A stretch of DNA of 64,000 nt, taken from positions 1-64,000 of the forward strand of contig CAXXJS010000030.1 of NCBI GenBank assembly GCA_963662665.2. Reading direction: 5' to 3'. The notes below the pieces were generated by a model, which was not told the DNA's origin, did not search any database, and saw nothing but the letters and a program-made list of their open reading frames with translations. This stretch comes from Candidatus Latescibacterota bacterium (GTDB lineage: Bacteria; Latescibacterota; UBA2968; GCA-2709665). The first letter of the stretch is position 1; every line of letters begins with the position of its first letter. This document shows positions 1-20,148 of the stretch, piece by piece. The translations under genes and the position numbers were made by a program.

Positions 1-2480
1 ACAGCGAGGATCTTACCGTCCCCCGAATACGCCACGGAGGCGAACGCGCCGCCCTTGTCCAGATCGTCGACAACGCCCTTCGACTCAACGTCCCATAGCT
101 TTATCGATCCATCGGTAACGCCCGCCGCAAGGATGTTCAATTCAGATGAAAACGCCACCGAGCCAACCCCGTCTGTATGTCCTTCGATGGTGGACGCATT
201 TCTTTTTTCGGTCACGTCCCACAACTTGATCGCGCCATCGTCCGAGCCGGAAGCGAGGGTGGTGCCGTCGCGTGAAAAAGTGACGGAATTGACTCTGTCG
301 GTATGCCCTTTCCGGGTGGCGATATTCTCATGTGTCGCCAGGTCCCACAGCCTGACCGTTCTATCCCACGACCCGGAAGCGAGGGTGGAGCCATCCGGGG
401 AAAAGGAAATGGACGCCACCGGGTACGTATGTCCTTCAAGGCGGGCGATCTGAGTGCCTTTTGCTACATCCCACAGGATGACAGTTCCAAGACTGGACCC
501 CTGGGCGAGTATTGCGCCATCCGGCGAAAACGACATAGGGAGGGGGTCATCCAGCCATCCACCGTTGCGCTGCCATTCAAAGGTGTAGACCTTGCGCTTC
601 GTCTCAATGTCCCACAACCTGACGGTCTCGTTTGCATTCGCCGTAGCCAGTAGGGTACCGTTTGGCGAAAAAGCGACTGCTTTGCTCCACCCTTGCTGAG
701 CGATGGCGGCAGTCTGCGTGCTCGTCGCCACGTCACAGAGTTATACGTTGACGTTTTCCCCGTCGTTGAAGTTGAAAATAACATCCGAAAACGCGACGGT
801 TTTTCCGTCGGGCGAAAACGCAAGGGAATTGACCTCCTTCTTGGCGGGAAACAGCGCCAGCGGCCTAGCCGTCGCGACGTCGTAAACCCAGACGCCCGCC
901 TTTTTCGCCACGGCAAGGAGTCGACCGTCCGGTGAAAAGACAACCGCTCTTTCGGTCTGGCTGAGGCGGCCCGTTCCCAGGCGGGCAACTGCGCCGTCGG
1001 GTAGCTGCCATGTAAATGAATCACCGTCCATGCTCGGAGGCGGGACGGATTGTCCATGACTCACCGCGTGAAACGTTTCCGTGTGTTCTCCGATAGATAC
1101 CTTAACGGTGTTTGTGCCCAGTTCGGTACCGAGGGTAAGGATAAGTTCCGCCCGGCCATTGGCATTCGTCGTTACGTTCTTGACCGTGAACCGCTCGTTG
1201 AGCCTCCCCTCTCCCGCAGTGATCGCAAAGACGACGTTCGCATCCGGCAGGGGTTTTCCGTGTTGATCCCTCACTTCAACGACGAGGGGCTGGGGCAACG
1301 TGGAACCGGGCGTACCTCGCTGGTTATCTCCTGAGATTATCTCAAGTGCTTGCGGATGGGGGAGCGTCGATTCGGACTCGATAGCCGAAAGAGTGAATTC
1401 CGTATGGCTCGTGTTCCCTGTTGCGTCAACGACCATGGCCGAAATCGAATGCGCACGAGGATCGGAAAGACTCGAAAAATCTCCCCAATTGTGCAGAGAT
1501 GGAATCACACCGTTATAATCAATCGTAACTGTGGCTTCTCTTTCTCCCGCCAACCCGCGACACGACTTCACTTCAGTTCCACGGCCTTCTGTGAACAGGA
1601 ACACTTGGTGAAGTCCATCAGAATCGCTAGCTTTGAGCCGGACAGCGACGCTCTCCGCGTCTTCGGAATAGGTTAGTGGAGAAACCAGTTCAATGGTAGG
1701 AAGTGCCCCCGCTTCAGTTGGAATATTCGGGTTGAAATAGGTATGCACGGCCAGAAACCCGGCGTTGCACGCGGATAATTGCGATTCTGGCAAGTTCCCG
1801 TACGACATAACGTACGCTTTGGCGCGGAAATCATGCTTCAATCCGAAGGTGTGGCCCAATTCGTGGCTGACGACATTGTGGTTATTCCACGGATCCATTT
1901 CGTTACTGGTAACCAGCGCAAATCCGCCGATTTTTCCATTTTGAAATGCTTTGCCTCCCGCTGCTCTATCAATTACATCTGTACTGATGTCGATTACGAC
2001 AAGGTATATATTCCGTTTCAAGTCAAAGGTCTGCTCTGTCTCGTTCAGGACCTTTTTGAATGTATTGTCAAGATAGTGACTATCGGCGTGTTGCCCATCC
2101 ACTCGATGCACCATCGGCTTCCCCTCTACATCGGTCTCAAAGCGGAATGTCCTGTCCCCGTGGTCCCGCGCCTGCATGGATACAAAGTAGAAGGTCTGAA
2201 CCTCGCGGATCCTGTCCTTCATATTCTGCACCACCTTGGCGCGATAGGGTCGGTCATCGGGCAAAAAGTAGATCATCCGCACCATACGCGGTTCGCCCAC
2301 GTTGAGATCCGCCGCGCGTTTGGCCGCAGGATCGGGATTCTCCCGCCGCCACTGCTCGTAATCGAACGGCACGCAGAAGTGCACACTGTCGGCCAAAGAC
2401 GTCGAAGCTGTACTGCCGGAATGAAGGCAGACCGATGCAATGAGGCACGTCGCCAGATGAATTGCCGCTTTGGAGTTCAT
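1..2480 (-). pseudogene. Secreted metzincin + Big-1 (Ig-like) + WD40-repeat protein, interrupted by an in-frame TAA at 741-743; runs off the window edge
   Basis: ORF 741..2486 has an N-terminal hydrophobic segment, HELGHTFGLKH with a VMSY Met-turn, a Big-1-like segment (GDNQRGTPGSTLPQPLVVEVRD) and the first WD40s. Past the TAA the same frame stays open to position 1 with canonical WD40s (LEGHTYPVASISFSPDGSTLASGSWDRTVRLWD). ATG 2480 lies 8 nt after GAGGA. Confidence 0.85.
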
Positions 2481-2755
2481 TTTCAAAGTCCTCTTTCAAG
2501 CGCCGACTGCCACGTGACTGAACGCCGTTTATGACGGAACGCACGTTGAACTTCAAAAAGGTTTATCACCATCAGTTTTGACGTAAAAAAAAAACCGTCC
2601 ATTCCTCAACCTACCCGTGACGCCGGGCTGACACATCCTGTATTCCTCTTTATACGAATGCGTTTACAGGCCGTAATGACGCCTAAACAGGGACGCATCT
2701 TGTTTCAAGTGGTTGTTGTTGCCGACGAAACATACGTCGTCGGCTCTACCATAAA

Positions 2756-5106
2756 TCAGGGTTCAATTGTGCGGATGACCAACCCCTGCTCATTGCCGAC
2801 GTAGATAGTGCGGTGGGGCACCGAGTCGAAGCGATGACTGGCGACGGGCTTCGCGCTTGCCGTGGGGGGCCGAGCTGTACTTACTGAGGCCGGAAGCCTG
2901 TACGGATCGGCTTTGCTGACATCCACGACGTAACCGAGATCGGCGAGGGATTGGATGGTGATCGCACTGAGGGCATGTTCCTGCTCCATACCCGGTTCCA
3001 TTTTCTCGGCACCGAACTCGCGGTCCTGGCCTCTGAATACGAATGAGTTCCAATGACTTCCTTCTCCACAAACGGCGTCAAAAAGGATGGCACTATCCAG
3101 GGGGACCTTATTTCCACTGCATTCCTCACCGCCCGCGGCGTTGAATGCCTCGATGGCCAGTTCACCACTGAAGTAGGCGTCTCCCAACGATTCATGGACC
3201 AGGCCCACATTCCTCCACAGCGTCCCGTATCCCAGAACATGCGCTATCTCGTGGAGCATCAGGTCCTGCAGGAGGCGCTCCTCCTGATAGAGGGGTTCTT
3301 CAGTCAGCCGGGCAAGGATGGACAGTGCAATCCAAATCTGGCCCACGGCGGGCAACCCGGTCGGATTGCCCGATCTCACGTAGGTCGGCCCACCCCTGCC
3401 GGCAGCTCCGTCAAGTTCAGTCTTGTGAACGAAAATCCGCAAGTCGTCCACAATATCGTTAACGGGTAAACGAACACCACCGTAGACCTCGAGGAAATCA
3501 AACTCATTGATCGAAAAATCCACCTCCGGCAGGCCCTTTGCAATGATGGTTTCTCAGCGTCTGGCCGCCTGCTGCATCGCATCCGTATGCGCAACGGTAA
3601 ATTCGCCAATGAAGACGAGTTCGATATTGAAAGGGTCCTCCCCGCCAGGAGCGACCCGGACGTACGCGCCGGTTGAGCAGTTGTTGTCCACATTGGCCTC
3701 GCCGGGGACGCCATCCACGCAAGCGCCGTAGTAGTTTGTACCGCGAGTCGAAGGCGCGTTCACGCTGATGGGCTTTCGACTGGTACCGGAGCCGGCGGGG
3801 CGGTTGCCAGGTCCACCGTACAGGCCGTCGAGCCCCGTTAGGCCGGGGACCTCGTCGACGCCGACTGGCGCGCGTCGGTGGCATCGATGGTGGCGTCGTC
3901 GGAGCGGTAATAGCGCAGGGTGGTGGAACCGGCTGCTTCCGGGCCCTGATTTCTCACCGTCGCCGTCAGTTCGAACGACTTCTCTGCCACGGCGGCGCTC
4001 GTGCTGGCCCAGGCCAGGCTGACAGCCAGGTCCGGAACTCCGACGTTCACGGGCATTGTCTGTGAGCAATTGTTATGTGTATCGCTCTCCCCGGGGACAG
4101 GATCGACGCAGGCAGTGAAATGGTGGGTTCCAGGATTTGAAGGAATCGAAGGCAAAAGCCAGGCATATCCGAATGTTTCAACGGCAATGCTGCCGATATC
4201 ATAAGTCTGAAAGGGTGTGTCGGTGACGTCGAAAGTCGCGTCGACCGAGAGTAAGTAGCGTAACGAGGTTGCGGCGGCTGGACCGGTACCCAGGTTTTGT
4301 GTCCTGATCCTCGCCGTTTTGCGACTCCCGGGCGTCACGCTTGTGTGGCTGATATGCGGAGAAAAAACAACCAGGTCGGGGGCGCCGTCTTCGTTGCCCT
4401 CTACGTTAACGCGCACACCGCTTGAACATCCACTCAGTTCCAGGCCCCAAAACTCGCAGACTCCGTAGTAATAGGTGCCCGCATACGACGGAGCCGTCCA
4501 ATCAAGCGACACTGGGATGGCCGTGGTTTCCATGTCGACCGACCTCCAATCCGAATGGATGAAGGCATCGCTTGCGTCGATCGTTTCATCGAGAGAGAGG
4601 AAGTAACGCAGATCCACATATAACCCAGTCGTTCGGTTCTGCAAGGTCATCTCCAGTGTGAACGCCTGCCCCGCCGTCAGGCTGGTGTCGCTGACCTTAA
4701 ACGAATGAAAAATGACACCTTTCCATTCTCTCCGTCCTGCCTCGCCACCAGGACTGACGCCTCCGGTAAACGCAGGCGCCTTCTTCCCGAAGTTTTGCGC
4801 AAAGAGCACAAAGTCAGAGAACCCGATCTCGTCGTCGTCGTTCAGATCGTATTGCGCGTCATATCCGTCATCGCCCTGATCCAGGCCGAATTTCTCCGCG
4901 AACTTCAGCAAATCGCCGAATCCGATCGTCCCGTCGCCGTCGAAATCCGGAATAGTCGCGGCATCATCCCCGTCGGCATCAACGGAGATCGCGTGAGACG
5001 TAGTGCCACCGTCCTCTGAACTGGCGCCGATGGCGGCGTGGCGCATAATCGCCAGCAACGCGAAGGTGGCTATGGGCAACAACAATCCTCGTGTTAACGA
5101 CTTGAC
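2756..5106 (-). pseudogene. Secreted dockerin/EF-hand + 3x CARDB-like + leishmanolysin(M8)-like peptidase; frameshift at ~3870 and TGA at 3554-3556
   Basis: ORFs 3838..5169, 3554..4069 and 2756..3523 join into one gene. A frame change in a GCGCGC tract restores DATDAPVGVDEV. AARR*ETII aligns with VARRWMGVI of the paralog at 10564-13239. Motifs: PDFDGDGTIGFGD, YYGACVD..GE....NNCS, HEIAHVLGYG, SHW..E.M. The aligned start position after AAGGAGG is GTC, so the start is uncertain. Confidence 0.85.
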
Positions 5107-5645
5107 CGATCCTCCTTCTAGCGCTATCGTCCGGGCGCGGCGTCTTGCGTCAGGCAGACGAATTGACAATATCGCCTTTCAGGCCCGGCGGAGCCCTTAT
5201 TGAGCGAGTATCTGCCAATGATGCGGAGTTGGGAAGAACCTGCCTTATGTAAATTTAACACATCGTTGCTGAACTCGCTGTGATTTTTCGCGCGTTTTCG
5301 TTGAATTATTGCTGAAGTTCCGGTCCCGCGCAAACTCAGCCGTTTCGCCAATCGAACTTATATGGGTGGGGTCTTGAAGAAGGACCATACTCGGAAACTC
5401 GTTCAGACGGAACCCGCATTTCAGCCGGGGCAGAAAGCCGACGTGTCCGAGCCGACATTCGAGAAATTCCCATCAGTCGCGGGGAGCGCTCTGTTCAATC
5501 CGGATATTCACGGGAGACATTGACGAGGCACTGAGACGCTGGCCGGATGGCCGCGTCGGGCGTAAGGAAATGCGGCCGTGCGGCGATGGCCGATTTGATG
5601 AAATAGACAAGAATCGGGCCGGCGGCTTCGGAAGGAATTCCATAG

Positions 5646-5688
5646 AAAAACGAGGGACGAAGCGCGAGCGGCTTCGACCCTCGTTTTT
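5646..5688. terminator. Intrinsic terminator-like hairpin, array-module copy 1
   Basis: AAAAACGAGGGACGAAGC...GCTTCGACCCTCGTTTTT; homologous to the hairpins at 8691, 10231 and 19071. Confidence 0.7.
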
Positions 5689-5776
5689 GCTTCACAGATG
5701 CAATAACGCGTTAGACGCTGGATCTCCTGTCGTCCAGTCAGGATTGATGGGACCTGCGATGCGGAAACGCGAACGA

Positions 5777-6577
5777 TCATCGGTTTATGGTTCGAACGAT
5801 ACGACCTTACGGGTCAACCACGTAGATCGGTTCATTCATCTGCCCAGCGCCGCAAGTCAGGTCAGGCTCCGCGTGAGAAGGAGAACCTCCTCCCCATGTC
5901 CGCTGGTTATCCGGAAGATCGAGCGTTACGCGCCGGCCCAAGATGCGTTCGGCGCCTTCAAATTGCCACGTTCGGACGCCACCGAGAATGGACGGTGCCG
6001 AAACGGAGATCTTCGCACTCGCCTTTGCGGCGGGATCATGCAGGGTATATGGAGAAGCCTGGGAGACATCCACGCTGTAGCCGAGATCGGCCATGGACTG
6101 CACCGTGAACGCGCTGAGCGCCCTTCCCCCACCCGGCGTCATGAGTTCGTTTCGGGATTCTGGCCCATGACGCCAGAACACAGAACTCCTCCAGTGCGAC
6201 CCATCCATCTTCTGCACCGGCACCTTCGCCCCCGTGCAGTTCCATCCACCCGCCTCGTCAGACGCCGCGACCGCCAGCGCTGCCTTATGGAGGGGGGTGT
6301 GCTCCGTGTACCATTCCCGTGCCATCGGGTCGGCGCCGGCGTCCAGTAATGCCTGGATAACGGCTCGATCCTGGCTGTACTCGGCTGCAAAGTGGAGCGG
6401 CGTTCTTGGCATATTCGCCTCGAGCCATTGGATCGGCCCCAGCGGCCAGGCAAGCGGTTACGCGCCCCACCGTCGCGTCCCGAAAGAACCTTTCCGTATT
6501 CCACTGGTCGCAATCAGGCGGCGCAAACACCACCTGCGAGAATAAAAGCCAGCCAGCAAGGCAATTTTGAGGTCCAT
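5777..6577 (-). pseudogene. Chimeric ankyrin-repeat / M8-peptidase C-terminal pseudogene
   Basis: GGGGAG RBS then ATG 6577 (MDLKIALLAG). Frameshift in a T4 run at ~6545, then DCDQWNTERFF..CLAAGADPMAR. Second frameshift at ~6405, then ankyrin TPLHFAA..LLDAGADP..TPLHKAA, joined directly to an M8 tail homologous to 10564-11150. Premature TAA at 5807-5809 precedes GRIVRTINR*. Confidence 0.8.
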
Positions 6578-6798
6578 TTCTGTCTCCCCGTGATCATCCT
6601 GATTTCACTTACACACCCTTAATCGACTGACTTGCTCTTGTCAGGCACGAATTTCCGGATGTCTACTATGTGGCTTGATGTCAATCGTTCTGAGTACCTC
6701 TGATTTTTTCGAAGACGCCTGAGAGAATCTCTTTCAGACGATTGAGAGACGCCTCGGGGTGAAGATCCAAGGGGTCTGGTCTGCCAGCCTTTACCAAC

Positions 6799-8073
6799 CT
6801 ATCTTCCAATCTGTGGAAGCACATAAGGAGACATGTCAAATTTCCGTTGGTCGAAATAATGTAGTCGATTTGGCATTGTATGTAAAAAACGTTGATAATC
6901 CTGGACCGTTAGCCTTTCAGGGAAATAGCGAACGGCAAACCACACCAACACACTTTCTGCGACGTCTTCTCTTCCTGGGTGTTCTGTAGCAAATTCAGAA
7001 ATGAAAACGCCGTCCAGCTTTTGTGCCTCCAACCAGGAATCGTCTTCTGCATGGTCCTTGTCCAATGATGCATGGGCGCCTTCGTGAATAAGGACCTCCT
7101 CTAACCACCCATCATTGACTACCCATTCTTCTGCAGCGTCCAAATGGACTTGCCCGTCTCGGTTTGCTGATGCCCCTCCGATGTTTCGTCCGATCTGAAT
7201 CTCATGGATATTAGATAGGAAGACAGCTGGCAATCGACCCACGATGTGTGCGTATTGCTCTACTACTTTGCGGGCCGCCGTTTGATTGCGATACTCTGGA
7301 TGAACTGAAAACACTGTCTGCTTCAACCTTGTCGCAAAATGTGCATGGAATTTATAGATGTTTTCCTCAACCCACTCTGCTCCGTTCCAGAACAAACGTA
7401 GTTCTCGTCCTGCGTATTGGATTTCTTGAAATGTAGTTGAATCCGTTGAAACAAGGATTTCCGGTGTGATCCACACAGTTCCCTGGTAGGGTGACTTTCC
7501 ATTGTGTTGGACAATAAGGTCAACTGTTCGATCTCTTTCCATGACAAGATCGATTAACTCAGGTAGAAAAAGGTCATGACTTGCCGTTACGCTTATACTA
7601 CCACGCACATTGAGAAATGCGTAATAACCCTCATTGTCCGCGACCATTGGACGATTGTTGCCATCCTGGAGTTCGACAACGGCACCCGGTAGATTTAGAC
7701 CGTGCCGTCGACCATCTTTCACAATACCTGATAACGTGTAACTTGGAACAGATTTGCCATGGTTTTCGGAAAAAATAAGGAAGTCCGAAAACCCGATCTC
7801 GCCGTCGCCGTTCAGATCATGTGTGGCGTCGTATTTCTCGTCACCCTGGCGCGCACCGAACACACCCGCAAAGATAACGAAATCGCCAAAACCGATCGTC
7901 CCGTCGCCGTCGAAGTCCGGAATGGACGCGGTATCGTCGCCGTTGGCATCAACGGTGATCGCAAGTACCGTCGCGTCGCCGTCGCTTGCATCGGCACCTA
8001 TCGCGGCGTAACATGCGATTGCCAGCAGCGCGAGGGCGGCAATATAGATTAGGCCTTTCGATGAAGTCATCAT
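6799..8073 (-). CDS. Secreted dockerin/EF-hand + carboxypeptidase-regulatory-like beta domain + HExxH zinc-peptidase-like protein
   Basis: 424-aa ORF with signal peptide, PDFDGDGTIGFGDF..DLNGDGEIGFSDF, YTLSGIVKD..LPGAVVEL..DNEGYY, and LIHEGAHASLD..EDVAES. Confidence 0.85.
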   Translation of the reverse strand: MMTSSKGLIYIAALALLAIACYAAIGADASDGDATVLAITVDANGDDTASIPDFDGDGTIGFGDFVIFAGVFGARQGDEKYDATHDLNGDGEIGFSDFLIFSENHGKSVPSYTLSGIVKDGRRHGLNLPGAVVELQDGNNRPMVADNEGYYAFLNVRGSISVTASHDLFLPELIDLVMERDRTVDLIVQHNGKSPYQGTVWITPEILVSTDSTTFQEIQYAGRELRLFWNGAEWVEENIYKFHAHFATRLKQTVFSVHPEYRNQTAARKVVEQYAHIVGRLPAVFLSNIHEIQIGRNIGGASANRDGQVHLDAAEEWVVNDGWLEEVLIHEGAHASLDKDHAEDDSWLEAQKLDGVFISEFATEHPGREDVAESVLVWFAVRYFPERLTVQDYQRFLHTMPNRLHYFDQRKFDMSPYVLPQIGR

Positions 8074-8467
8074 TTGACACTTTCTGATCGTGACTACCGG
8101 ATTTCTACTCAGACCTATTCAATCTGACGGAACCCATTTGCCGAGTTACATCACTGCAACCGCCTCGGTTACGGATGTCGACCTCGTTGTCGGGTATATT
8201 GTGTCCAGCAAAAGTACGCAATGAGAAACCGGCGTTCAACACCGATTACTTGTCGAGTCGTCCGTAATTTGTCCTGGAATCCACTAATTGCGATGTGTGG
8301 AAAGGGGGATAGATTCGATGGTGGGAAATCCCCGCAGGCGCGTTGAGACTTCCGAACCGTGGGAGCAGGTTTCAAACCTTCTCTAACTGTCCTATGTGCA
8401 CGGATGCGTGGGACATCGGATACGGTCTGCCGGATTTCGGGGGCGAGATCCTTACTTCCGAACCTAT
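8040..8467. repeat. Conserved upstream block A (promoter/5' leader + degenerate REP); sister copy at ~16640-17069
   Basis: Alignable over ~430 bp (e.g. GGATTTCTACTCAGACC.ATTCAATCTGACGGAACCC; GAGATCCTTACTTCCG.ACCTA). Both copies precede MMTSSKGLIYIAAL genes. Confidence 0.85.
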
Positions 8468-8690
8468 ACCGGCAGAACGACGTTGAGGCGGGCAGACAGG
8501 CGCTGCAGCCAGGCCCCACCTTCGAGCAAGTTTCCTTAGGGTGCAGGCATACGTGTGGCGATGGCATTTCGCGCCTGGCGATCAACTGACCTGTCATTCT
8601 GAGCGCAGCCTAAGAAACTCCCGCTAATTCCGTTGTAAGTGTGAAAGAAAACTTCGCTTACGATTTTGGGAAAAAGACTGGAATCAATAC

Positions 8691-8742
8691 AAAAAAAGAG
8701 AAGGGTCGAGGCGCGGTTAAGTGGCTTCGACCCTTCTTTTTA
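8691..8742. terminator. Terminator-like hairpin, module copy 2
   Basis: A-run, then GAAGGGTCGAGGC...GCTTCGACCCTTC, then T-run. Confidence 0.75.
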
Positions 8743-8876
8743 TGGAGGTCTGTTCAGATGCGTTTCGCGATTTGGGGCTGGATTCCTGTTGATTTCCACA
8801 CGCCTGACGCGGCAACGCGAGGAATCATCGGCCTATGGTGCGGACGACGTGTCTATGTCCTGAACCAGACCACAGG

Positions 8877-9527: not shown

Positions 9528-9780
9528 AGGGTTTCCTCAATTCATCGCCCGATCAGCGGGCCGGGAAAGTAACGCACCTGTATTCGTTGTAAGTCAAATC
9601 AATATACGGGAATCGGGCACACAGGGCAATATAGCGGCTGTAAATTGCGTATTTGATGGTCATTCAAAAAGGCAAACACAGTATGGAAAGGATTCCTCAA
9701 GAAGCAAAACACGCGGACGCGTCAGGCGAAGTGAGGTCCGCGAGGGCAACCCCTCGCAGGCGCGTTGCGGGGTCCGAAGC

Positions 9781-9809: not shown

Positions 9810-9885
9810 AGTCCGATGTCCACGGAAGCGTGCGAGATGGGTTACCGCAGGCTGCGATTCGGCGGCGAGATCCTTACTTCCGAAC

Positions 9886-10297: not shown

Positions 10298-10428
10298 TCC
10301 GGGCTGCAGTCGCCACGGGCACGCGAACCAAACAGAAAAACCCGGTCCGGGTGGACCGCCTCGCCAACCGCGCGAGCCACGGCACAGGCTTTCGGGCCGG
10401 GTGCCTTGAGTGTTGGGGATCTTGGCGT
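10298..10428 (-). pseudogene. 5' fragment of a third MNT-HEPN gene
   Basis: PKACAVARAVGEAVHPDRVFLFGSRARGD matches the start of 19293..20093. The start ATG reads ACG (10426-10428) and the rest is deleted. Confidence 0.85.
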
Positions 10429-10563
10429 GGTAAACGTAGACCTTCCACGTCGCACGGCTGTTTTCCGTCCGCATGGTCGGACCGTCGATAGGAGAATGGT
10501 CAAGTTACGTCCAACTACGTGAATTTGGGGAAACAGGTGGGACCGACGGAAGAACGTCACGTA

Positions 10564-13239
10564 TCATCGGTTTATGGTTCTAACGATACGCCCCTGCGGG
10601 TCAACCACGTAGATCGGTTCATTCATCAGCGCGGCACCGCAGGTGAGCTTTGGCTCGGCGAAGCTAGGCGAACCCGTGGGCCATATCTGCCGGCGATCTG
10701 GAAGATCGGATGTAGTGCCGAGGCCCCAGATGCGTTTGGCACCTTCAAAACGATCCGTACGGCGGCCGTCTCCGAGAATCGAGAAAGGGACATCCCAGAC
10801 GATTCCCTGTCCGTAGATGTCTACGTTGCGTGACGGAGATATAGTGTGCCGTGTGAGATCGAGAACGGGGTCGGGGGCCGAGGGCTGGCTTTCTGCAATC
10901 GTCGCCGCCAACTTACTGCCGGCGGCACCGGGTAGGGTATAGGTATCGGCCTGCGTGGCATCCACGCCGTAGCCGAGATCAGCCAGAGACTGGACCGTGA
11001 TCGCGCTTAGCGAACCGCCACCACTTGGCAACATGAGCTCGTTCTCTAGCACGGAATTCCTCCAGTGCGCCCCATCCATCTGCTGAACAGGAACCCTATT
11101 ACCCGCGTAGTGCCGTCCACCCGCGTCGTTAAAGGCGGTTATCGCCAGCGGTCCGCTGAAGTGCGTGTCGGCATTCGGATCGTACTGAGAGTAATCCTTA
11201 AGGAGGCCGCGGTCTCTCCATAAAGTACCGAATCCCAAGACGTGTGCGACCTCGTGAAGCCCTGTAATCAGCAAATTCGCCCGTTCCAGATTGATTTGAA
11301 TACATCCCAGGACTGGCATATGGGTCGCGTCGCGTAACAACTTTGGTTGACCCCGCCCTGTAGCAATTTCGCTTTCAAACGTGTTCAAATAGATCCGAAG
11401 GTCGTCTATGCGTTCCCCCGCCGGTATCTCAAAGGAATGATCGCCGCACGTACCCGACCAACCCTCGGTAAATTCATGATCCGGGAGGTCCTCCGTAATG
11501 ACCCCCATCCAGCGCCGGGCCACGTATTGGAGTACGTTCTGCTGACGTTCATTGAAAAGGTCAGAGAAAACGAGCTCGATGTCGTAGTCACCCTTGCCGA
11601 ACGTGTCGAAGAGTACCTCAACGCCGCGGCTCTTGAGCTCGGGAATATGATCGAAAACGGAGGCGTTGCCGAGGGGGTTACCCCGAAGCTCCAGACTTTC
11701 CAGTCCAGTCAAGCCCATCAGTGGCGAGACATCGGTAATGCGGTTGAACTCGAGCTCCAACTCAGTCAGACGGATCAGGCCTCCAAGTGCCGAAACGTCT
11801 GTGAGATCGTTTGTTCCCAGACGCAGCCGTGTTAGATTGGTCAAGCCGGCTAGCGGCGACAGGTCCGTGATTTGGTTGTTAGGAAGGTACAGCTCCGCCA
11901 GGTTGGCCAGACCGGCCAGCGGCGATATATCCGTTATGTTGTTCAGTCCAAGATGCAGCTCCGTCAGGTTGGTCAAGCCCGCCAGCAATGAGATGTCCGT
12001 AATGCCGGAATCAACAAGACTCAATCTAGTCAAGTTGATCAACCCCGTCAGTATGGATGCCAGGGTCGACGGATTCATAGTCTCGATTGAACTAATACCC
12101 AGATGTGTTAAGTTCGTCAGGCCTGCCAACATCGACAGGTCCGTGATGGGGTTGCCATCAATTTCTAAAGATGTCAGGTTGGCCAAACCGGCCAGCGGCG
12201 ATATACTCGTGATGTCGTTATACCACATGACCAAGGTCGAAAGGTTGGTCAAGTCGGCTAGCGGCGACACGTCCGTGATGAGATTGCCACCAATTCCCAG
12301 AAATGTCAGGTTGGCCAAACCGGCCAGCGACGAAATATCCGTGATGTTGTTATCCCACATGACCAAGGTCGAAAGGTTGGTCAAGCCGGCTAACGGCGAC
12401 ACGTCCGTGATACTGTTGCCATAAGCCCACAGTTCCGTCAGGTTGGTCAAGCCCGCCAGCGGCGAGATATCCGTAATGTCGTTGAATCCAAGAGACATAT
12501 AGATCAGGTTGGTCAAGCCTTCGAGCGGCGACAGATCGGATGCACGATTGGATTGAATATCCAGCCTTTCCAGATTGGTCAAGCCTGACAGTGGCGACAG
12601 ATCCGATATGTTGTTCCATCCAAAATACAGCACAGTCAGATTGGTCAAGCCTGACAGTGGCGACAGATCCGATATGTTGTTCGACGGAAATTGCAGCACA
12701 GTCAGATTCGTCAGGCCTGAGAGCGGCGACAGATCGGTGATGTGGTTGATATCAAGGTATAACTCCTTCAGGTTGACGGCGGCTTCCAACCCGTTCAGAT
12801 CGCTGATGCCACGCCTGGCCACATAGAGGAAATCATCCAACGACTTCATATCAGCAACGGTGATCTGGGCCCCGGGGCCCTTGCGTAAAGCCTCCGCAAT
12901 CTCCGCCCTCAGGTTGGCGTCGGGGATGGTGACCACCGGGGAGGGTGCGTCTTTACCAAAGTTCTGCGCGAAGATCACAAAGTCCGAGAAACCGATCTCG
13001 CCGTCACCGTTCAGATCATAGGTGGCGTCGTACTTCGCGTCACCCTGCCGCGCACCGAACACACCCGCAAAAATCACAAAATCGCCGAAACCGATCGTGC
13101 CGTCGCCGTCGAAATCCGGAATAGACGCGGTATCGTCGCCGTTGGCATCCATGGTGATCGCAAGTATCGTCGCGGCGTTACATACGATTGCCAGCAGCGC
13201 GAGGGCGGTAATGAACACAGTTCTATTTCCGGATTGCAT
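10564..13239 (-). CDS. Secreted dockerin/EF-hand + internalin-type LRR (~17 x 22 aa) + leishmanolysin(M8)-like peptidase
   Basis: 891-aa ORF. IPDANLRA N-cap, LxxLxLxxNxITDISPLAGLTN repeats, HEVAHVLGFG, AHW..ELM, C-terminal PIYVVDPQGRIVRTINR. Confidence 0.92.
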   Translation of the reverse strand: MQSGNRTVFITALALLAIVCNAATILAITMDANGDDTASIPDFDGDGTIGFGDFVIFAGVFGARQGDAKYDATYDLNGDGEIGFSDFVIFAQNFGKDAPSPVVTIPDANLRAEIAEALRKGPGAQITVADMKSLDDFLYVARRGISDLNGLEAAVNLKELYLDINHITDLSPLSGLTNLTVLQFPSNNISDLSPLSGLTNLTVLYFGWNNISDLSPLSGLTNLERLDIQSNRASDLSPLEGLTNLIYMSLGFNDITDISPLAGLTNLTELWAYGNSITDVSPLAGLTNLSTLVMWDNNITDISSLAGLANLTFLGIGGNLITDVSPLADLTNLSTLVMWYNDITSISPLAGLANLTSLEIDGNPITDLSMLAGLTNLTHLGISSIETMNPSTLASILTGLINLTRLSLVDSGITDISLLAGLTNLTELHLGLNNITDISPLAGLANLAELYLPNNQITDLSPLAGLTNLTRLRLGTNDLTDVSALGGLIRLTELELEFNRITDVSPLMGLTGLESLELRGNPLGNASVFDHIPELKSRGVEVLFDTFGKGDYDIELVFSDLFNERQQNVLQYVARRWMGVITEDLPDHEFTEGWSGTCGDHSFEIPAGERIDDLRIYLNTFESEIATGRGQPKLLRDATHMPVLGCIQINLERANLLITGLHEVAHVLGFGTLWRDRGLLKDYSQYDPNADTHFSGPLAITAFNDAGGRHYAGNRVPVQQMDGAHWRNSVLENELMLPSGGGSLSAITVQSLADLGYGVDATQADTYTLPGAAGSKLAATIAESQPSAPDPVLDLTRHTISPSRNVDIYGQGIVWDVPFSILGDGRRTDRFEGAKRIWGLGTTSDLPDRRQIWPTGSPSFAEPKLTCGAALMNEPIYVVDPQGRIVRTINR

Positions 13240-14261
13240 TTTCTGCTCTCCTGGCTATCGGGATTGAATGAACGCCCCGGTGACTTTAACCAAAATAGCC
13301 CTTCCCCGAAACGTCAACTTCTTTGCGTTATCCACCAATGTGCAATGTAAAGGGAAATACCAGTCAGAACAGGAAATTTGCCCCACGTTCACAAATTGCC
13401 TCGATCTCCAGTTTTTCTCGATTTGACTGCATTTGCCATTAGGTGCACGACGCTCAATTGAGAAATCGACCAACTGAAGTCGCCGGAGTAGCGAATCGGA
13501 GAACGGAGTCATTACGACTGATACCGCCGGGCGTCTATCGGAATGGACTGCAAGATCAACACCTGTTCAACGCCGGGTACGTCGATGACGCATTTGGCCG
13601 CTTGTGCTGAGGAGCAACTGTTGAGATGTATTTCCTTACATGACGGCGGAACATAACCTCGGGTGGCGTTCAGGCTTTGAAAACGGCTACCTTTGGCTAT
13701 CTGAAGCTGTGTACATCCTCTATGATGCAAGTGACGGCAGGCCTCGAAGAGGTCTAAGATAGCGGCGTGCGTTTGTTGGATCTTTAGGCGCGACCCAATT
13801 GGAGCCGACCTCCAGGATGATTGTGTTGTTAATTGCTACAGTTGTCTGCCTCTTACTGATGCAACGTCAGTGTATGCCCGATTGTGAATTCCTCGAAACG
13901 GATGATTACGTCTACGTAATCAGACGGAGTCGATCCCTTTTTGACCGATAGACTCAGTAAGTCGACGTACGCGTTGATTGGGGCCGAAATACCTGGTTGT
14001 GTATTTCGGATGGAAATTTCGAGCTGTTCAATCGGCGAAGGTGGCCCTACTCCATCGTAAGTGTATATTCGCGGCGTATTTGCACCGTACGCCACTCATG
14101 ATGATCTCCGCCGCCAGTCGGTATTCACCGCGGCTTCTCGGCAGCGCTCTCGGAATCCCGCGCCACCGCGAAGACCGACTCGACCGTCGGCGTCGTCCGC
14201 CTCCCCGCTTTTAAACGGCTCCCCCTGCGGTTCGTTTACCATGCCGTGAATCTGGTGGGAC

Positions 14262-16676
14262 TCAAAATGGTTCGCCCCCATAATACCAAAGATTGATTAC
14301 TTCATCGGCGGCTTCTGCAATGCCGGGAGAGGCATCCTCAACAAAGGCTTTTTGCACGTAGCACACGCCCCTCTCCACGCCCGCGCACTCATCATCATGT
14401 TCGAGATTGCTCATCTTCATGTACAGGCTTCCGAAGCCTTTCCGAAATTCCGTGTCTCCCAAGCGTTTATACAAATTCCAGAATAGGCCAGATCCCATGT
14501 TGTAATTACATGACGACCTATAGACGGCGCCACCCTTGAGGTTCTCATCAGGGCTGGCAGTATACGTCTTCTGGTCCAACTCTCCTATGGTGTCGAACAG
14601 ACTACAGCGGGTGTCGCTGGGCGAGGTGGGGGGGGCGCCTACTAGGTTGTCATATGGGAAGTCATCCATGAATGTGGCAGCGCCTTCAGCAATCCAGGTG
14701 AATGGCGTGAAAGTAATCCCTTTTGAATACGCGGCTTGCCACCACGCGGATGGAATACTCCAGTAAGCATGAGCAAGCTCGTGGGTGAGAAGGTAAACGT
14801 CTTCCTCGAATCCCGGGTTAAGCGTAACAATCCCATTTCCAGCGCTTGCTCCTAGCCCCCCCACGGATTCCACGTTGAATATGAACGACATCTTGTAGGG
14901 GTAGGCCACATTCATGAAAGCCTCGTATTGACGGAGTATTTCTTCCATCATGTCTAATGTGCGAAACGTGCCAGGAGTGACGCGGAGAACCGTCAGGGTC
15001 GTTTCCCCGGCCAGGGGAAACACTATTGTCCGCTCTTGCAGATACACCCGATCGGGGTCCAAAAGAATAAGTCGACTTTCCACAGTTTCCGGCGAAAATT
15101 TGGCTATCCGCCACAGCCCCGCTAAAACCACGGTGTCCTTGTCCGTGATGCCTCCACTCAATGAAGGGTGGTCAAGAACCGGTTCGAGATAGCGCCCGTC
15201 CATCTGAAAGTCCAGGAAGTTCAGACAACGCACTGCATAGTAATCAAGAGTTTCGAACGTATCAATAAAAGGCATTTTTAGAATTCGCAAGGTGGTTTCA
15301 ACGCTGCGCTCTCTTCCCGGTCTGCTGGCCATGCGGATCAGCTCTTCAATCATAAAGGCTTCGTCCGCAGTCAGTCCGTCTCCGATCCAGGGTTTCTCCA
15401 GCAAAGCAGAGAACACTTCTTCGGTACGCAGCGCCGCCTTAGTCAAGGTCGACACGGCGTAGGATTCGGATGCGCCGACGCCGTCCCGGATCCAGGACAA
15501 CGCCGCCAGGGCAGCGTATTCATCAGGGTTTTGGGCCCCCACTTCCTCCAACAGCTTTTCGACTCTCGATCTGTCCCAGACCGTCACCAATCTGGACCGG
15601 GAGCAGTTGTTTCGGGTATTGCTCTCGCCTGTAACGGTCGCCACACAAGCGCCGTAGTAGTAAACGCCCTCACTCGACGGGGCGGTCACGCTGAGCGACG
15701 CGGCACTGGCGCCAGACGCCGCAAGGCTACTTACGGCATCGCTGTCAATCAGCGTATCCTGCATGGAAATCGTCCGGTTGGTCGAGCGGTAGAACCGCAA
15801 GGTCGCGGCCGCCGCCGCACCCGTGCCCTGGTTGCGTACCGCAGCCCTCAATGTGAAGGATTGCCCCGGGGTCAGGGTACTGTCGCTGACCGAGGGCGAT
15901 TCAACTATCAAATCCGGGCTACTGGGAGGCGGAGAGGGGGTAAGAGAAACGCGGACCCCCCTTTCCCGGAGCGTCGGGACGTGGGTACTCAGGGATTCAG
16001 CGTTTAGTGGGTTGTCAGTGACGTCAACTGTACCTCCCGTGCCCAGGCTCGTGTTCGCCGACAGGCCAGCGAGGTCGGCAATGTTGTTGCTTGAAAGGAT
16101 CACGTGTGTCAAGTTCGTCAAATCTACCAAGACTGATACGTTGGTGATATCGTTGGAAGCAAGATCCAGCCATGTCAGGTTAACGGCATACTCCAGTCCG
16201 GTCAGGTCGGTGATGTCCGCATCGCTGGCTGCAAGACTGTCCAACGTCGCCAGTTCGGCCGCTGTGACCGGCGCGCCGCTGGCCTTGCCCAGGGCGTCTT
16301 CGATCACAGCGCGAAGGTTGGCGTCGGGGATGGTGACGACCGGTGAAGGGGCATCTCTGCCGAAGTTTTCAGCGAAGATTAAAAAGTCCGAGAAGCCGAT
16401 CTCGCTGTCACCGTTCAGATCATACGTGGCGTCGTACTTCGCGTCACCCTGGCGTGCTCCAAACACACCCGCAAAGATCACAAAATCGCCAAAGCCGATA
16501 GTCCCGTCGCCGTCAAAGTCCGGAATGGACGCAATATCGTCGCCATTGGCAACGACGCTGGTCGCAAGTGCTGGCACATCGCCATCGCTTGCATCGGCAC
16601 CCATCGCGGCGTTACATACGATTGCCAGCAGCGTCAGCGCGGCAATATAGATTAGGCCTTTCGAGGAAGTCATCAT
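14262..16676 (-). CDS. Secreted dockerin/EF-hand + short LRR + CARDB + gluzincin-like peptidase
   Basis: Start MMTSSKG chosen by paralogy with 8073. IPDANLRA cap, ~3 LRRs, PDLIVESPSVS..YYYGACV..NNCS, then THELAHAYW...WIAEGAATF. Confidence 0.88.
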   Translation of the reverse strand: MMTSSKGLIYIAALTLLAIVCNAAMGADASDGDVPALATSVVANGDDIASIPDFDGDGTIGFGDFVIFAGVFGARQGDAKYDATYDLNGDSEIGFSDFLIFAENFGRDAPSPVVTIPDANLRAVIEDALGKASGAPVTAAELATLDSLAASDADITDLTGLEYAVNLTWLDLASNDITNVSVLVDLTNLTHVILSSNNIADLAGLSANTSLGTGGTVDVTDNPLNAESLSTHVPTLRERGVRVSLTPSPPPSSPDLIVESPSVSDSTLTPGQSFTLRAAVRNQGTGAAAAATLRFYRSTNRTISMQDTLIDSDAVSSLAASGASAASLSVTAPSSEGVYYYGACVATVTGESNTRNNCSRSRLVTVWDRSRVEKLLEEVGAQNPDEYAALAALSWIRDGVGASESYAVSTLTKAALRTEEVFSALLEKPWIGDGLTADEAFMIEELIRMASRPGRERSVETTLRILKMPFIDTFETLDYYAVRCLNFLDFQMDGRYLEPVLDHPSLSGGITDKDTVVLAGLWRIAKFSPETVESRLILLDPDRVYLQERTIVFPLAGETTLTVLRVTPGTFRTLDMMEEILRQYEAFMNVAYPYKMSFIFNVESVGGLGASAGNGIVTLNPGFEEDVYLLTHELAHAYWSIPSAWWQAAYSKGITFTPFTWIAEGAATFMDDFPYDNLVGAPPTSPSDTRCSLFDTIGELDQKTYTASPDENLKGGAVYRSSCNYNMGSGLFWNLYKRLGDTEFRKGFGSLYMKMSNLEHDDECAGVERGVCYVQKAFVEDASPGIAEAADEVINLWYYGGEPF

Positions 16677-17070
16677 TCGATCCATCCTGTTCGGGACTAC
16701 CGGATTTCTACTCAGACCCATTCAATCTGACGGAACCCGTATGCCGGGTTACATTACTGCAACCGCCTCGGTTACGGACGCCGACTTCGTTGTCGGTTAT
16801 CGTGCATCCAGCAATGGTACTCAATGCGAAGCCGGCGTTCAACACCGTTTGTTTGGCGACACGTCCAGGATTTGTCGTGGATTCCACTAATTTCGATATG
16901 CGGAAAGGGAAATTGATTCGATGGAGTGAAATCCCCGCAGGCGCGTTGCGGGGTCCGAAGCGTAGGGGCAGGTTTCCAACCTGCCCTAGCAATCCGATGT
17001 CCACGGATGCGTGGGACATAGTATACTGTCTGCCGGGTTTAGGCGGAGAGATCCTTACTTCCGTACCTAG

Positions 17071-18702
17071 GAGTCTGCGCCGCAGGAAAATTCATTTCAA
17101 TGGACATGTAGTTGTAGGTATAATGGGTCGTGTAGTTGGTATATGTCAAGGGTATCGTTGTGTGTTATGTCAGGGGAGGGAGCGATCCATGCCGACAACG
17201 TTTCGACCGTATCACCCGGACCAGATATTGCTGTTGGCGCCGGATCTTCGGGAGTGGGTGCCTGAAGGTCATCTGTCGCACCAGGTGAGCGATCTGGTGG
17301 ATTCCCTGGATCTGGGGTCGTTCTACGCGCCCTATGAAGGCGATGGTCGTCGCAACGCGCCATATGATCCATCGATGATGTTGAAGGTATTGATCTATGG
17401 GTACGCGACGGGAGTGTATTCGTCTCGAGCGATCGCTGGGAAGCTGGAGGAGGACGTGGCGTTTCGTATGTTGGCGGCGGGCAATTTCCCACAACACCGG
17501 ACGATCTGCGAGTTTCGGCGTCGTCACCTGGAAGATTTCGGGCGTTTGTTCGTGGAGGTGGTTGGTGTGGCACGGGAGATGGGCCTGGTACGTTTCGGGA
17601 CGTTATCTTTAGACGGCACGAAGGTACGAGCGAAGGCCAGCAAGCGCAAGGCCATGAGTTACGAGCGGATGTTGAAGGAACAGGCTCGTCTGGAGAAAGA
17701 GATCGGGGCGTTGCTTTCGGGTGCTGTGTCGATTGATGCCGAGGAGGATGCACGTTACGGCGTGGATGTTCGTGGCGACGAGTTGCCGGTCGAGTTGCAG
17801 CGCAGGCAGGCTCGTCTGGCGGCGATCAGGGCGGCGAGGGAGCGTCTGGAAGCATCGCAACGAGCCGTCGACGATGCGCGCGGGCGCAAACCGGGTCAGA
17901 AGCGCAACCCGAAGGGCGGGCGGCCTTACAAAAGAGCCTATGGCGAGCCCGACCCGAAGGCTCAGAGCAACTTCACGGACCCCGAGTCTCGGATCATGAA
18001 GACGAGCGCGGAGGGGTTCCAGCAGTGCTACAACGCGCAGACGGTGGTGGACGCCGAGCGTCAGATCATCGTGGCTGTGCATCTGGGGTCACAGGCCACC
18101 GATCAGGGCTTTATGCTCCCCTTGCTGGATGGTGTGCAAGAGACATTCGGGGTCAAGCCGGACGCGGTTCTGGCGGATGCGGGCTACTGCAACGAGGAGG
18201 ACCTGGCCACGCTTGAGGAGCGTGGCATTGATGGTTACGTGGCGCTGGGGCGGGAGGGCAAGGAAAAGGTGGACGTCGATTCGGAGACGCTTCCGGCGAC
18301 CCATCGCATGGGCGAGAAGCTCACCAGCCCGGAAGGTCGGGGCCTGTATGCGAAGCGCAAGTGGCTCTCGGAGGCGCCCAACGGATGGATCAAGGAGGTA
18401 TTGGGCTTCCGGCGCTTCAGCTTCCGGGGGCTGGAAAAGGTGCGTGCCGAGTGGGATCTGGTCTGCCTCGCGTTGAACGTCAAGCGGATGGCAGCGTTGT
18501 CGATGTGTTGAAGCATGGGTTCGGGTGTCCTGTCCTTATGGACTCGACATACGGGAAACCACGATCCCTGGAATCTCGCCCTCAACACGCCTGCCTGCAA
18601 CGATCACCGTACCCAAAACTCATCATACCACTCCCAACATAACGACCAACCCGACTCACGGACACACCTCGCCCTTTGTAAAAACTCCTGCGGCGCAGAC
18701 TC
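17071..18702 (+). mobile_element. IS1182-family insertion sequence
   Basis: 17-bp terminal IRs GAGTCTGCGCCGCAGGA (17071-17087) and TCCTGCGGCGCAGACTC (18686-18702). CTAG target duplication at 17067-17070 and 18703-18706. Confidence 0.95.
17189..18511 (+). CDS. IS1182-family DDE transposase
   Basis: MPTTFRPYHPDQ..., YDPSMMLKVLIYGYATGVYSSR, LDGTKVRA, TDPESRIMK, LADAGY, GFRRFSFRG; GGGAG RBS upstream. Confidence 0.95.
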   Translation: MPTTFRPYHPDQILLLAPDLREWVPEGHLSHQVSDLVDSLDLGSFYAPYEGDGRRNAPYDPSMMLKVLIYGYATGVYSSRAIAGKLEEDVAFRMLAAGNFPQHRTICEFRRRHLEDFGRLFVEVVGVAREMGLVRFGTLSLDGTKVRAKASKRKAMSYERMLKEQARLEKEIGALLSGAVSIDAEEDARYGVDVRGDELPVELQRRQARLAAIRAARERLEASQRAVDDARGRKPGQKRNPKGGRPYKRAYGEPDPKAQSNFTDPESRIMKTSAEGFQQCYNAQTVVDAERQIIVAVHLGSQATDQGFMLPLLDGVQETFGVKPDAVLADAGYCNEEDLATLEERGIDGYVALGREGKEKVDVDSETLPATHRMGEKLTSPEGRGLYAKRKWLSEAPNGWIKEVLGFRRFSFRGLEKVRAEWDLVCLALNVKRMAALSMC

Positions 18703-19070
18703 CTAGCGCGGCTTCGCTATGCTCAGCCACAACCAAACAGGTGGCAATGATCGGGGGAGCCCGTTTGAAGGTTCAATCACTCCCCCCTTGAGGGGGAATC
18801 GCAGAAGCCGAGCCGATCCCTGAGCATGCGTTGCCCTGAGCCTGTCGAAGGGTCGAAGGGCCGGCGACGGCTGATGCGGTGGGGGGATTTCAACGCCTTA
18901 CCGTATACAAGCAGCATGAACAAACATGTAAGCAACTTGCGTTGAAGTCTCACTGAAAGACAAAACCGGCAGAACGACGTTGATGCGGGCAGACAGGAGT
19001 GTCCGCCTCGCCTTCAGGCAAGTTTCCTCAGGGTGTTGGCGCAATGCTGAAAACGGTGCTTTGACAAACA

Positions 19071-19103
19071 AGAAGGGTCGAGGCGCATGGTCTCGACCCT
19101 TCT
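19071..19103. terminator. Terminator-like hairpin, module copy 4
   Basis: AGAAGGGTCGAG...CTCGACCCTTCT. Confidence 0.65.
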
Positions 19104-19292
19104 CTCTAATAGATGACCGCTCAGACGCATTTGGCGATCTGTAGATGTATCTCAGCGAACTGTAAGGCGGGATCCAGGTCTTTCGGCCCGGAAACGCAAG
19201 GAATCGGGGGCGTATGGTGCGGATGAATCGATCGTTCCGGTCAATCGCGTAATTCGGATTCATCCGGTTTCGTGGACGATTTCTGTTGACAC

Positions 19293-20093
19293 CTAATCGG
19301 AGCCAGGCTCCTCTTCCCCCGTTGCTGTCAGCTCGCGGATTCGGGCGACAATTGCCTCGACGGTCTCGATCACCGCCGAAAGCAGCGCATCACGATCCTC
19401 GATGACAATCTGTACGCCTGCATAGCGGTATTGCACGGCGTATTCGGTCAGCCACGCCAGCCGTTCGCCGGCGGGGGTGCCGATTTCGGCGGGATGCTGC
19501 CTCACGATCGCGGCCAGGTCCGCCAGATCGTGTGTATTACCATAGTCTGCGTCGAGCGCGGAAATCCAGCCCTTCAGGGCGTTTTCAAGTGCCTGTTGTG
19601 CGGTAAACCCAATGAGTTCCTGAGAAGACCGGGGATTTTCCGTGAGCACTTCCAGATCGCTGAGACAGCGCCTGGCATTGGCAATGCGCTGCTTAACGTC
19701 GGGCCAGTTGCTCGGCTCCGGATTGTTGTAATTTGCCTTATCGCCATTGGTGTCGAATCCGTCGCGGACGGCCTGGCCCGCCACGTGGTTGCGCGCGCGA
19801 CGACCGGAATGGAAATCTCTTTCACTCATTTGGACGAGATCGACGCCGATAGAACCGCCGTACAGCTCTGCGGCCTTGCCATGAGCGATCGAACTGGCGC
19901 GCTGGTACGAGCCATTGTCCATGGTATCGGAGTCTGTAATGACGAGCAGATCGACGTCCGAATCCAGAGTGTAGTCGCCCCGTGCGCGCGAGCCGAACAG
20001 GATGACCCGGTCCGGGTGGACCGCCTCGCCAACGGCGCGAGCGACGGCGCAGGCTTTCGGGTCTGGTGAGTTGTGTGTGGGGAGCCTTGCCAT
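19293..20093 (-). CDS. Fused minimal nucleotidyltransferase (MNT)-HEPN protein, copy 1
   Basis: LFGSRARGD..SDVDLLVI (MNT) plus GFTAQQALENALKG..THDLADL..YAVQYRY (HEPN). Confidence 0.88.
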   Translation of the reverse strand: MARLPTHNSPDPKACAVARAVGEAVHPDRVILFGSRARGDYTLDSDVDLLVITDSDTMDNGSYQRASSIAHGKAAELYGGSIGVDLVQMSERDFHSGRRARNHVAGQAVRDGFDTNGDKANYNNPEPSNWPDVKQRIANARRCLSDLEVLTENPRSSQELIGFTAQQALENALKGWISALDADYGNTHDLADLAAIVRQHPAEIGTPAGERLAWLTEYAVQYRYAGVQIVIEDRDALLSAVIETVEAIVARIRELTATGEEEPGSD

Positions 20094-20148
20094 TGTAGAC
20101 GTAATCCTTCTGCGCCGAGAGGCGTTCCGACTTGACTGAGACCTCGGC

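Follow-up and report, generated by a model that had tools for sequence, protein, structure and literature searches.

A variable tandem array of predicted secreted zinc-metallopeptidase genes with a shared dockerin-like leader in Candidatus Latescibacterota

In a stretch of 64,000 nucleotides from a Candidatus Latescibacterota bacterium (contig CAXXJS010000030.1, positions 1 to 64,000, assembly GCA_963662665.2; hereafter the window), we have identified a tandem array of seven co-oriented genes, g1 to g7, six of which encode predicted secreted zinc proteases or a fragment of one. It is probably a hypervariable zinc-metallopeptidase array that evolves by birth-and-death, through unequal homologous recombination and gene conversion, and not a programmed cassette system. 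The parts that recombine would be genes encoding fused nucleotidyltransferase and HEPN domains (NTase-HEPN) together with their remnants, the blocks upstream of the peptidase genes, a common leader and the 3′ tip of an M8-like domain. Units would be duplicated or deleted, 5′ modules would be re-paired with other bodies and broken copies (g1, g2 and g3) would be left behind, with insertions of insertion sequences (IS) and of a small repeat element contributing to the turnover of the array.

All substantial open reading frames (ORFs) within 1–16721 lie on the minus strand and, downstream of phoX (20149–21516, minus strand), the order of transcription is an NTase-HEPN gene, g7, g6, g5, g4, g3, g2 and g1. 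The intact g7 (14262–16676, with a probable start at 16676 in an ORF reaching 16721) encodes the leader, a short LRR stretch, CARDB and a HELAH M1-like gluzincin domain, and g6 (10564–13239), also intact, encodes 891 amino acids comprising the leader, an LRR array and a HEVAH M8-like peptidase domain. The LRR part of g6 has 13 in-register 66-nt copies in a repeat scan and 13 LRR_4 stretches in Pfam, against the 17 repeats counted by a first-pass annotation of the sequence. In g4 (6799–8073, intact) the leader is followed by a transthyretin-like (CarboxypepD_reg) domain and a HEGAH domain, and in the pseudogene g2 (2756–5169, probable start near 5106) by CARDB repeats and a HEIAH M8-like peptidase domain. 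An ANK remnant is fused to the C-terminal half of an M8-like domain in g3 (5807–6412). g1 (3–2486, main ORF 741–2486) carries its own signal peptide, a HELGH metzincin, Big_1 and WD40, the WD40 part (3–731) continuing beyond the edge of the window. Finally, g5 (8877–9527) encodes a 216-aa protein inside a duplicated spacer module and belongs to no Pfam, NCBIfam or PADLOC family; its homologue in another locus (L010) is 85% identical and adjoins an NTase-HEPN gene and M8-like genes.

Domains are shared in a reticulate manner: the leader by g2, g4, g6 and g7, LRR by g6 and g7, CARDB by g2 and g7, and the M8-like domain by g2, g3 and g6. This agrees with the first-pass annotation, whose four leader-bearing genes map to the same positions in our repeat analysis and whose bodies for g2, g4, g6 and g7 were recovered by Pfam and by direct reading. 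Its count of six secreted genes with a peptidase domain or a fragment of one stands for the six co-oriented peptidase genes, five of which contain HExxH (g3 lacks it), and leaves out the seventh, g5.

Variation and exchange at the locus

Arrays of the same kind were compared in four related genomes, which are representatives of different species: OZ244744 (loci L002 and L004), OZ242180 (L013 and L005), OZ242358 (L006) and OZ250150 (L001). The array abuts lon in all four and lies between phoX and lon in three. A conserved flank of an M32 peptidase gene, a TPR protein gene and phoX was found in OZ244744, OZ242180 and OZ242358 (90–96% aa identity for PhoX in L002, L013 and L006), and beyond lon stand an enolase-family gene (not detected in OZ244744), an oxidoreductase gene and a ceramidase-like gene. 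Between these flanks, OZ242358 has only two leader genes and one NTase-HEPN gene; OZ244744 has five leader genes, two of them frameshifted, and three modules made of an NTase remnant, a block B′ and a block A (both described below); OZ242180 has six leader genes and four NTase-HEPN genes; OZ250150 has a g1-like gene, a frameshifted LRR-M8 gene, a g7 orthologue and a second LRR-M8 gene before lon. The window has g7, the LRR-M8 gene g6, then g5, g4, g3, g2 and g1. Gene content and order therefore vary between conserved flanks, and the comparison across related genomes that the first-pass annotation had proposed came out as it expected, with different cargo and copy number.

One of these differences can be mapped. 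OZ242358 and OZ242180 are 89–96% identical across the locus, with 12.2 kb missing in OZ242358. Up to about position 9200 its single NTase-HEPN gene follows copy 1 of OZ242180 at about 100% identity, and from there on OZ242358 is 98–100% identical to the sequence following NTase-HEPN copy 3 of OZ242180. The 12.2-kb difference is a homologous crossover between NTase-HEPN repeats. In OZ242180, up to four copies of this gene are interleaved with peptidase genes, and the NTase-HEPN copies appear to serve as crossover sites in the array.

The window itself holds two intact NTase-HEPN genes on the minus strand, copy 1 (19293–20093), part of a repeated unit, and copy 2 (22816–23634), which is 83% identical to copy 1 at the nucleotide level and lies beyond the range of the first-pass annotation. 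A minus-strand remnant of the NTase-HEPN N-terminus, 150 nt long (10295–10445), has 71–77% aa identity to both. Both intact copies join the two domains in one protein of 266–272 aa. NTase and HEPN are usually the two proteins of a toxin-antitoxin pair; the type VII pair MntA/HepT was considered and set aside, as the protein is a single fusion and the MntA model gave 31.5–32.3 bits against a cut-off of 60. PADLOC returned only weak candidate-system matches (PDC-S09).

Exchange is also seen at the 5′ ends of the genes. A non-coding block of about 390 nt, block A, stands directly upstream of g4 (8074–8466) and g7 (16677–17070), both on the minus strand, and the two copies are 84% identical; substitutions by codon phase are 20/23/26, compared with 6/8/26 in the leader. 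Block A followed by a leader of the MMTSSKG type precedes the gluzincin gene g7, the HEGAH gene g4 and, in OZ244744, two LRR-M8 genes and a gene for a HELMH protein of about 500 aa, which bears out the earlier suggestion that the same 5′ module heads unrelated bodies. From −390 to about +30, g7 is 75–97% identical to g4 and to three OZ244744 genes, whereas against its own orthologue (L001, 82% identical) this stretch is at background level (0.28–0.43); from about +30 the orthologue matches g7 at 80–97%. The first 14 residues of g7 are those of g4, and the three full-length g7 orthologues have a signal-peptide start unlike that of g7. Leaders themselves are mosaic, with two OZ244744 genes having a common signal peptide and differing first dockerin halves, and in 9 of 12 LRR-M8 genes the leader and the M8 domain point to different nearest relatives. 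The PHI test gave p=0.004 (20 leaders, 1000 permutations; two C-terminal dockerins and one identical duplicate removed, first 10 codons skipped).

Modules composed of NTase-HEPN gene remnants, a repeat element of about 240 bp and a non-coding upstream block are shared by three of the seven spacers, namely the one upstream of g7 and those on either side of g5 (g6–g5 and g5–g4). The spacers g7–g6, g4–g3 and g2–g1 have no second copy in the window and the g3–g2 spacer has relatives solely in other genomes, so that the earlier statement that the spacers reuse the same parts applies to three of them only. The upstream module of g2 (class 2; 5170–5735, minus strand) has its relatives in OZ242180, at 70–74% nt identity to L013 2555–3091 and 6878–7242, where it is common to LRR-M8 genes downstream of NTase-HEPN genes. 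In the g6–g5 spacer a partial, distal copy of block A (9744–9888, minus strand) is followed by the repeat element (9889–10123, strand not assigned) and by block B′ (10124–10306, minus strand) with its palindromic hairpin (10230–10262). Block B′ recurs at 18965–19147 and partially at 8468–8543 and 8699–8780. The repeat element, delimited by self-comparison at about 235–258 bp, recurs at 18707–18964 and inverted at 23885–24120 and is missing from the g4 module; it also occurs, in both orientations and in several genomes, in L009, L012 (two copies) and L016. It contains an internal palindrome, ACTCCCCCCTTGAGGGGGAGT, shows no obvious terminal inverted repeats and may be a non-autonomous mobile element or a small RNA gene. 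The ORFs overlying the block A region (8169–8597, 9886–10230 and 18898–19263) matched no family.

An IS1182-family insertion sequence of 1632 bp (17071–18702, plus strand) separates block A from the repeat element at a distance of 394 bp upstream of g7; its transposase lies at about 17189–18511 and reaches 370 bits with NF033551, whose cut-off is 270. The element has perfect inverted repeats of 17 bp, CTAG is duplicated as its target site (17067–17070 and 18703–18706), and the uninterrupted junction at about 9885–9892 shows the empty site. It is a plain, apparently recent insertion. A related DUF772 transposase gene interrupts the array in L001 (707–2230). A second transposase gene of the window (36377–37465), IS630-like with DDE_3 and helix-turn-helix domains, adjoins a 64-nt perfect-type palindrome (37508–37571).

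Leader, catalytic bodies and decayed copies

The leader, predicted to consist of a Sec-type signal peptide and a dockerin-like double calcium-binding module of about 70 residues, forms a repeat family at 4785–5084, 7755–8054, 12954–13253 and 16358–16657, with 69–85% nt identity to the reference copy and self-blastn E-values of 1e-20 to 0. DFDGDGTIGFGDF and DLNGDGEIGFSDF recur in each of the four window leaders and also in the N-terminal leaders at related loci. The window leaders match the dockerin type I motif, two tandem loop-helix segments of the form D-x-D/N-x-D-G-x-I-x-x-x-D-F. The Pfam dockerin type I model PF00404 scores 19.1 bits on g4 and 17.8 bits on g6, under its gathering cut-off of 22.9, which is passed by relatives at L002:19781–20200 (23.2 bits) and L005:12610–14079 (23.4 bits).

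This leader is spread far beyond the array. In a search with the 112-residue g4 leader for longer proteins, it headed at least 281 proteins at E≤1e-5 among 2691 candidates. The best 120 of these 281 carried the bodies LRR+M8 (50), LRR (34), CARDB+M8 (6), g7-type (4), CARDB (3), g4-type (1) and none of the domains of the window (22). HExxH was found in 92 of the 106 of these 120 proteins with at least 400 aa, including further families with HELMHRW and HEYFH motifs. Species-representative genomes were also scanned with alignment-based leader patterns, and the best 80 of 103 confirmed stretches were grouped into 61 loci in 28 assemblies, labelled Latescibacterota or Latescibacteria (24), Gemmatimonadota (3) and uncultured bacterium (1). 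Two to six dockerin modules, always co-oriented, are present at 39 of these 61 loci, some of which overlap one another. Since it occurs on hundreds of proteins across Latescibacterota metagenome-assembled genomes, mostly with HExxH, the leader is best read as a general tag for predicted exported metallopeptidases of the lineage and not as a feature of this locus. In proteins of the g1 type (metzincin, Big and WD40) the dockerin lies at the C-terminus (L001 3464–6520; L035 6674 to about 10165), and thus the same docking module is used at either protein end. The first-pass annotation had placed the variable bodies under a constant promoter and leader at a diversification locus; this was not supported, for the leader is lineage-wide. 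As every intact copy has its own 5′ module, the array contains no one expression site that silent cassettes would feed.

The design of the genes would be a signal peptide and a dockerin-like module followed by a body in which a binding domain (LRR, CARDB, TTR-like, WD40 or ANK) is paired with one of several unrelated HExxH domains. Judged from their sequences, LRR, CARDB, WD40 and ANK domains combine with at least five kinds of HExxH domain. The g7 body (predicted model, pLDDT 89) is modelled as an M1-like gluzincin of clan MA, with HExxH, a downstream Glu ligand and a thermolysin-like fold. M1 zinc peptidases account for all the PDB matches that Foldseek listed for it at E≤1e-3 (25 counted), with a modest TM of about 0.38, and an alignment of 29 sequences shows conservation of 90% or more at H263, E264, H267 and E295. 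Among its homologues PF01433 matched solely the most distant one (P0167). The g7-type body also occurs as a stand-alone protein of about 405–437 aa in many genomes, and a first scan of genome contigs with this body alone confirmed no relative.

The HEGAH domain of g4 is covered by no Pfam family; it has 1356 relatives at E≤1e-3, and H218, E219 and H222 are invariant in 37 sequences. The g4 model reaches a pLDDT of 91, and its PDB fold matches span only the transthyretin-like domain, with ERAP1 matches at a probability of 0.2–0.44, so the fold search gave no convincing PDB placement for the HExxH domain. In g6 the M8-like domain reads HEVAHVLGFG ... GAHW ... ELM and conforms to the Peptidase M8 pattern (HExxHxxGF, downstream third His, Met-turn); g2 has HEIAHVLGYG, and g3 retains just GSHW ... 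ELM. The third zinc ligand is presumably the downstream His. The M8 label of g6 and g2 is weak by Pfam, though the motif fits: PF01457 scored 16.9 bits on g6 against a cut-off of 21 and did not match g2. The cut-off is passed by a relative at L013:7446–9719 (23.7 bits), and PF01457 is annotated in precomputed form on P0012, P0054, P0107 and P0114. Sequence searches of the PDB with the g4 body, the g7 body and the g6 M8 domain returned nothing meaningful, and protein-atlas matches all scored under 0.9 and serve only as leads.

Three of the seven genes (g1, g2 and g3) are decayed. An in-frame TAA at 741–743 interrupts g1 in the middle of a WD40 blade, at a position where the intact homologue in L035 has K. 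In g2, the frame changes near 3866–3875 and an in-frame TGA stands at 3554–3556, where g6 has W; intact homologues of about 900 aa with the g2 architecture exist (P0118, P0047, P0097, P0091 and P0120). The leaderless g3 joins ANK pieces in two frames to its half of the M8-like domain and ends at a premature TAG, ten codons short of the usual end. Stop-codon recoding was rejected, because g1 and g2 have different in-frame stops (TAA in place of K, TGA in place of W) and the remaining genes include intact ones. Close relatives of full length are available for the intact g4, g6 and g7, among them P0001, 96% identical to g4, and P0032, P0025 and P0048, which share the g7 architecture at 92%, 84% and 82% identity. 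Decay is found in relatives too, as frameshifted LRR-M8 genes in L002/L004 and in L001.

Other duplications in the window include a 185-nt direct repeat of 85% identity (59044–59228 and 63814–63998) around a superfamily-1 helicase-like gene (59912–63763, 1283 aa), and tandem paralogous genes for MacB/FtsX-type permeases (31078–32352 and 32445–33695) that are about 67% nt identical in parts.

Competing explanations

Several points weigh against birth-and-death evolution as set out above. The exchange of 5′ modules is known from divergent copies and was not observed directly, and the divergence of about 16% between the g4 and g7 modules argues against recent homogenisation. The differences between the compared genomes could have built up slowly, and within-population switching of the array may still occur. 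The window shows one end of the array, on the phoX side, the lon flank lying beyond it. Sequencing errors could in principle account for the lesions in g1 and g2. The function of the array is itself a prediction: Sec export and docking to a cohesin-bearing partner would be followed by target recognition through LRR, CARDB, WD40 or ANK and by zinc-dependent proteolysis of external, possibly host, proteins.

Another such point is the last stretch of about 130 nt before the start codon of block-A genes (window 16677–16811 and 8074–8208; L002 9913–10057; L004 12281–12425; L001 1–92), which is 92–97% identical between species, compared with about 81–83% nt identity in neighbouring genes. Rfam gave no match at E≤0.1 within 1–25000. 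The folding of the conserved stretch had a z-score of −1.5 (15 of 200 shuffles fold as well), and compensatory change was found in 0 of 41 pairs among five sequences, which lends no support to an RNA structure. A consensus scan for promoters and terminators was uninformative: it returned 17 promoter-like sites, where shuffles gave 10.9 +/- 3.3, and 17 terminator-like sites, where shuffles gave 19.3 +/- 4.1. Block A is unsuited to a covariance model, since there are just about six copies in the sequences examined.

This conserved stretch would suit a contingency locus, which we regard as unlikely. The 5′ modules, the 130-nt stretch included, and the NTase-HEPN repeats would then be kept to drive frequent unequal recombination, so that the population would express many pairings of binding module and protease, with leaderless fragments as donor cassettes. 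The presence of one 5′ module on unrelated bodies, the cargo and copy number that vary between conserved flanks, the leaderless g3, which could be a donor, and the outcome of the PHI test would all suit such a locus. Yet neither the window nor any of the four related loci yielded a dedicated recombinase; Pfam revealed no integrase, invertase or reverse transcriptase in the scanned window ORFs or in 56 ORFs of those loci. Each intact copy comes with a 5′ module of its own, divergence between modules is about 16%, the leader is genome-wide and not tied to the locus, and the g7 architecture is kept at 82–92% identity in three other genomes. As the g4 and g7 modules are about as diverged as orthologous flanking sequence between species (81–83% identity), the exchanges are old evolutionary events and not fast switching. 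The first-pass annotation had described a recombinational diversification locus with no dedicated recombinase in view. The 5′ exchange and the variable cargo give the first part partial support, the one mapped rearrangement being an ordinary crossover; for the second, an IS1182 transposase is present, and no integrase, invertase or reverse transcriptase accompanies it.

It is also improbable that the array arose by plain tandem duplication and divergence, with no exchange and with a leader conserved by purifying selection. Leader substitutions do fall mostly at third codon positions, the arrays are co-oriented, and M8-domain identity is positively correlated with leader identity (r=0.60, 66 pairs). 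Nonetheless, the 5′ flank of g7 matches its paralogues and is unrelated to the flank of its orthologue, and the same upstream block precedes unrelated catalytic families. The mosaic leaders, the 9 of 12 genes with discordant nearest relatives and the PHI result oppose it as well.

An integron-like or other cassette-capture array, or the target of a diversity-generating retroelement, is close to refuted. Co-oriented genes and spacers with a palindromic hairpin would suit cassette capture, and NTase-HEPN genes are common in cassette arrays. However, the Pfam searches already described contain neither an integrase nor a reverse transcriptase, the units measure 2–3 kb and have their own 5′ modules and leaders, and the mapped rearrangement is a homologous crossover inside a gene. 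An integron was rejected for lack of an integrase domain and for units with their own upstream modules, attC sites not having been searched with a dedicated model; a diversity-generating retroelement was rejected as the scanned window ORFs include no reverse transcriptase domain and the repeats are LRR units and spacer modules. It is very improbable, too, that dispersed paralogues were joined into the mosaic by a chimeric assembly: repeats of 200–700 bp at 70–90% identity can mislead short-read assemblers, but their identities are far under 100%, the IS has intact inverted repeats, a target duplication and a matching empty site, the g6 of the window is found on a 2.43-Mb contig in a protein collection, and an array of this kind occupies the same position in four independent chromosome-level assemblies.

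Relation to known systems and significance

The Rhs/CDI polymorphic toxin loci and the Listeria internalin family combine a constant N-terminus with variable C-termini and orphan fragments. The array is similar to them in its constant 5′ part, variable bodies, leaderless downstream fragments and homologous recombination, and its LRR part matches internalin models, far under their cut-offs. It differs from them in having no toxin-immunity pairs, in a constant part that is a predicted export-and-docking tag and in an own promoter region for each copy. The Leishmania GP63 (leishmanolysin, peptidase M8) genes also form tandem arrays and share with ours the HExxHxxGF-type motif, the downstream H and the ELM Met-turn pattern, whereas our array is bacterial and LRR/CARDB-fused, with a weak PF01457 match and no PDB sequence similarity.

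A further likeness in the design of the genes is to cellulosome-type dockerin enzymes, in which a signal peptide and a duplicated calcium-binding segment are likewise found on many catalytic bodies and domains are likewise shuffled among paralogues. In the array, however, the dockerin-like module is N-terminal, after the signal peptide, and C-terminal just in the g1 type; the cargo consists of zinc peptidases with LRR, CARDB or WD40 instead of glycoside hydrolases, and the dockerin-like copies of the window score under the Pfam cut-off. Dockerins are reported for Latescibacteria in PMC7424252, which cites Farag et al. 2017. For sponge-associated bacteria, Latescibacterota included, PMC12993501 describes LRR, ANK, WD40 and TPR eukaryotic-like repeat proteins, which are the repeat classes of the array and are expanded in its own phylum. 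The words dockerin and peptidase are absent from that paper, and relative to the proteins described there the repeats of the array are distinguished by fusion to HExxH domains, a common leader and a hypervariable array. No description of the leader protein set, with its at least 281 members, was found in the searchable literature, which omits most subscription journals.

Among the genomic marks of host-associated bacteria such as sponge symbionts, eukaryotic-like repeat proteins are the best known, and their roles are mostly obscure. Binding domains and HExxH domains behind one leader suggest a testable idea, namely that such proteins could carry out targeted, surface-docked proteolysis. Because relatives differ between fixed flanks by mappable recombination, the array is a natural experiment. 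If the contingency reading were true, a symbiont population would continually present its host with new pairings of eukaryotic-like binding domains and docked metalloproteases.

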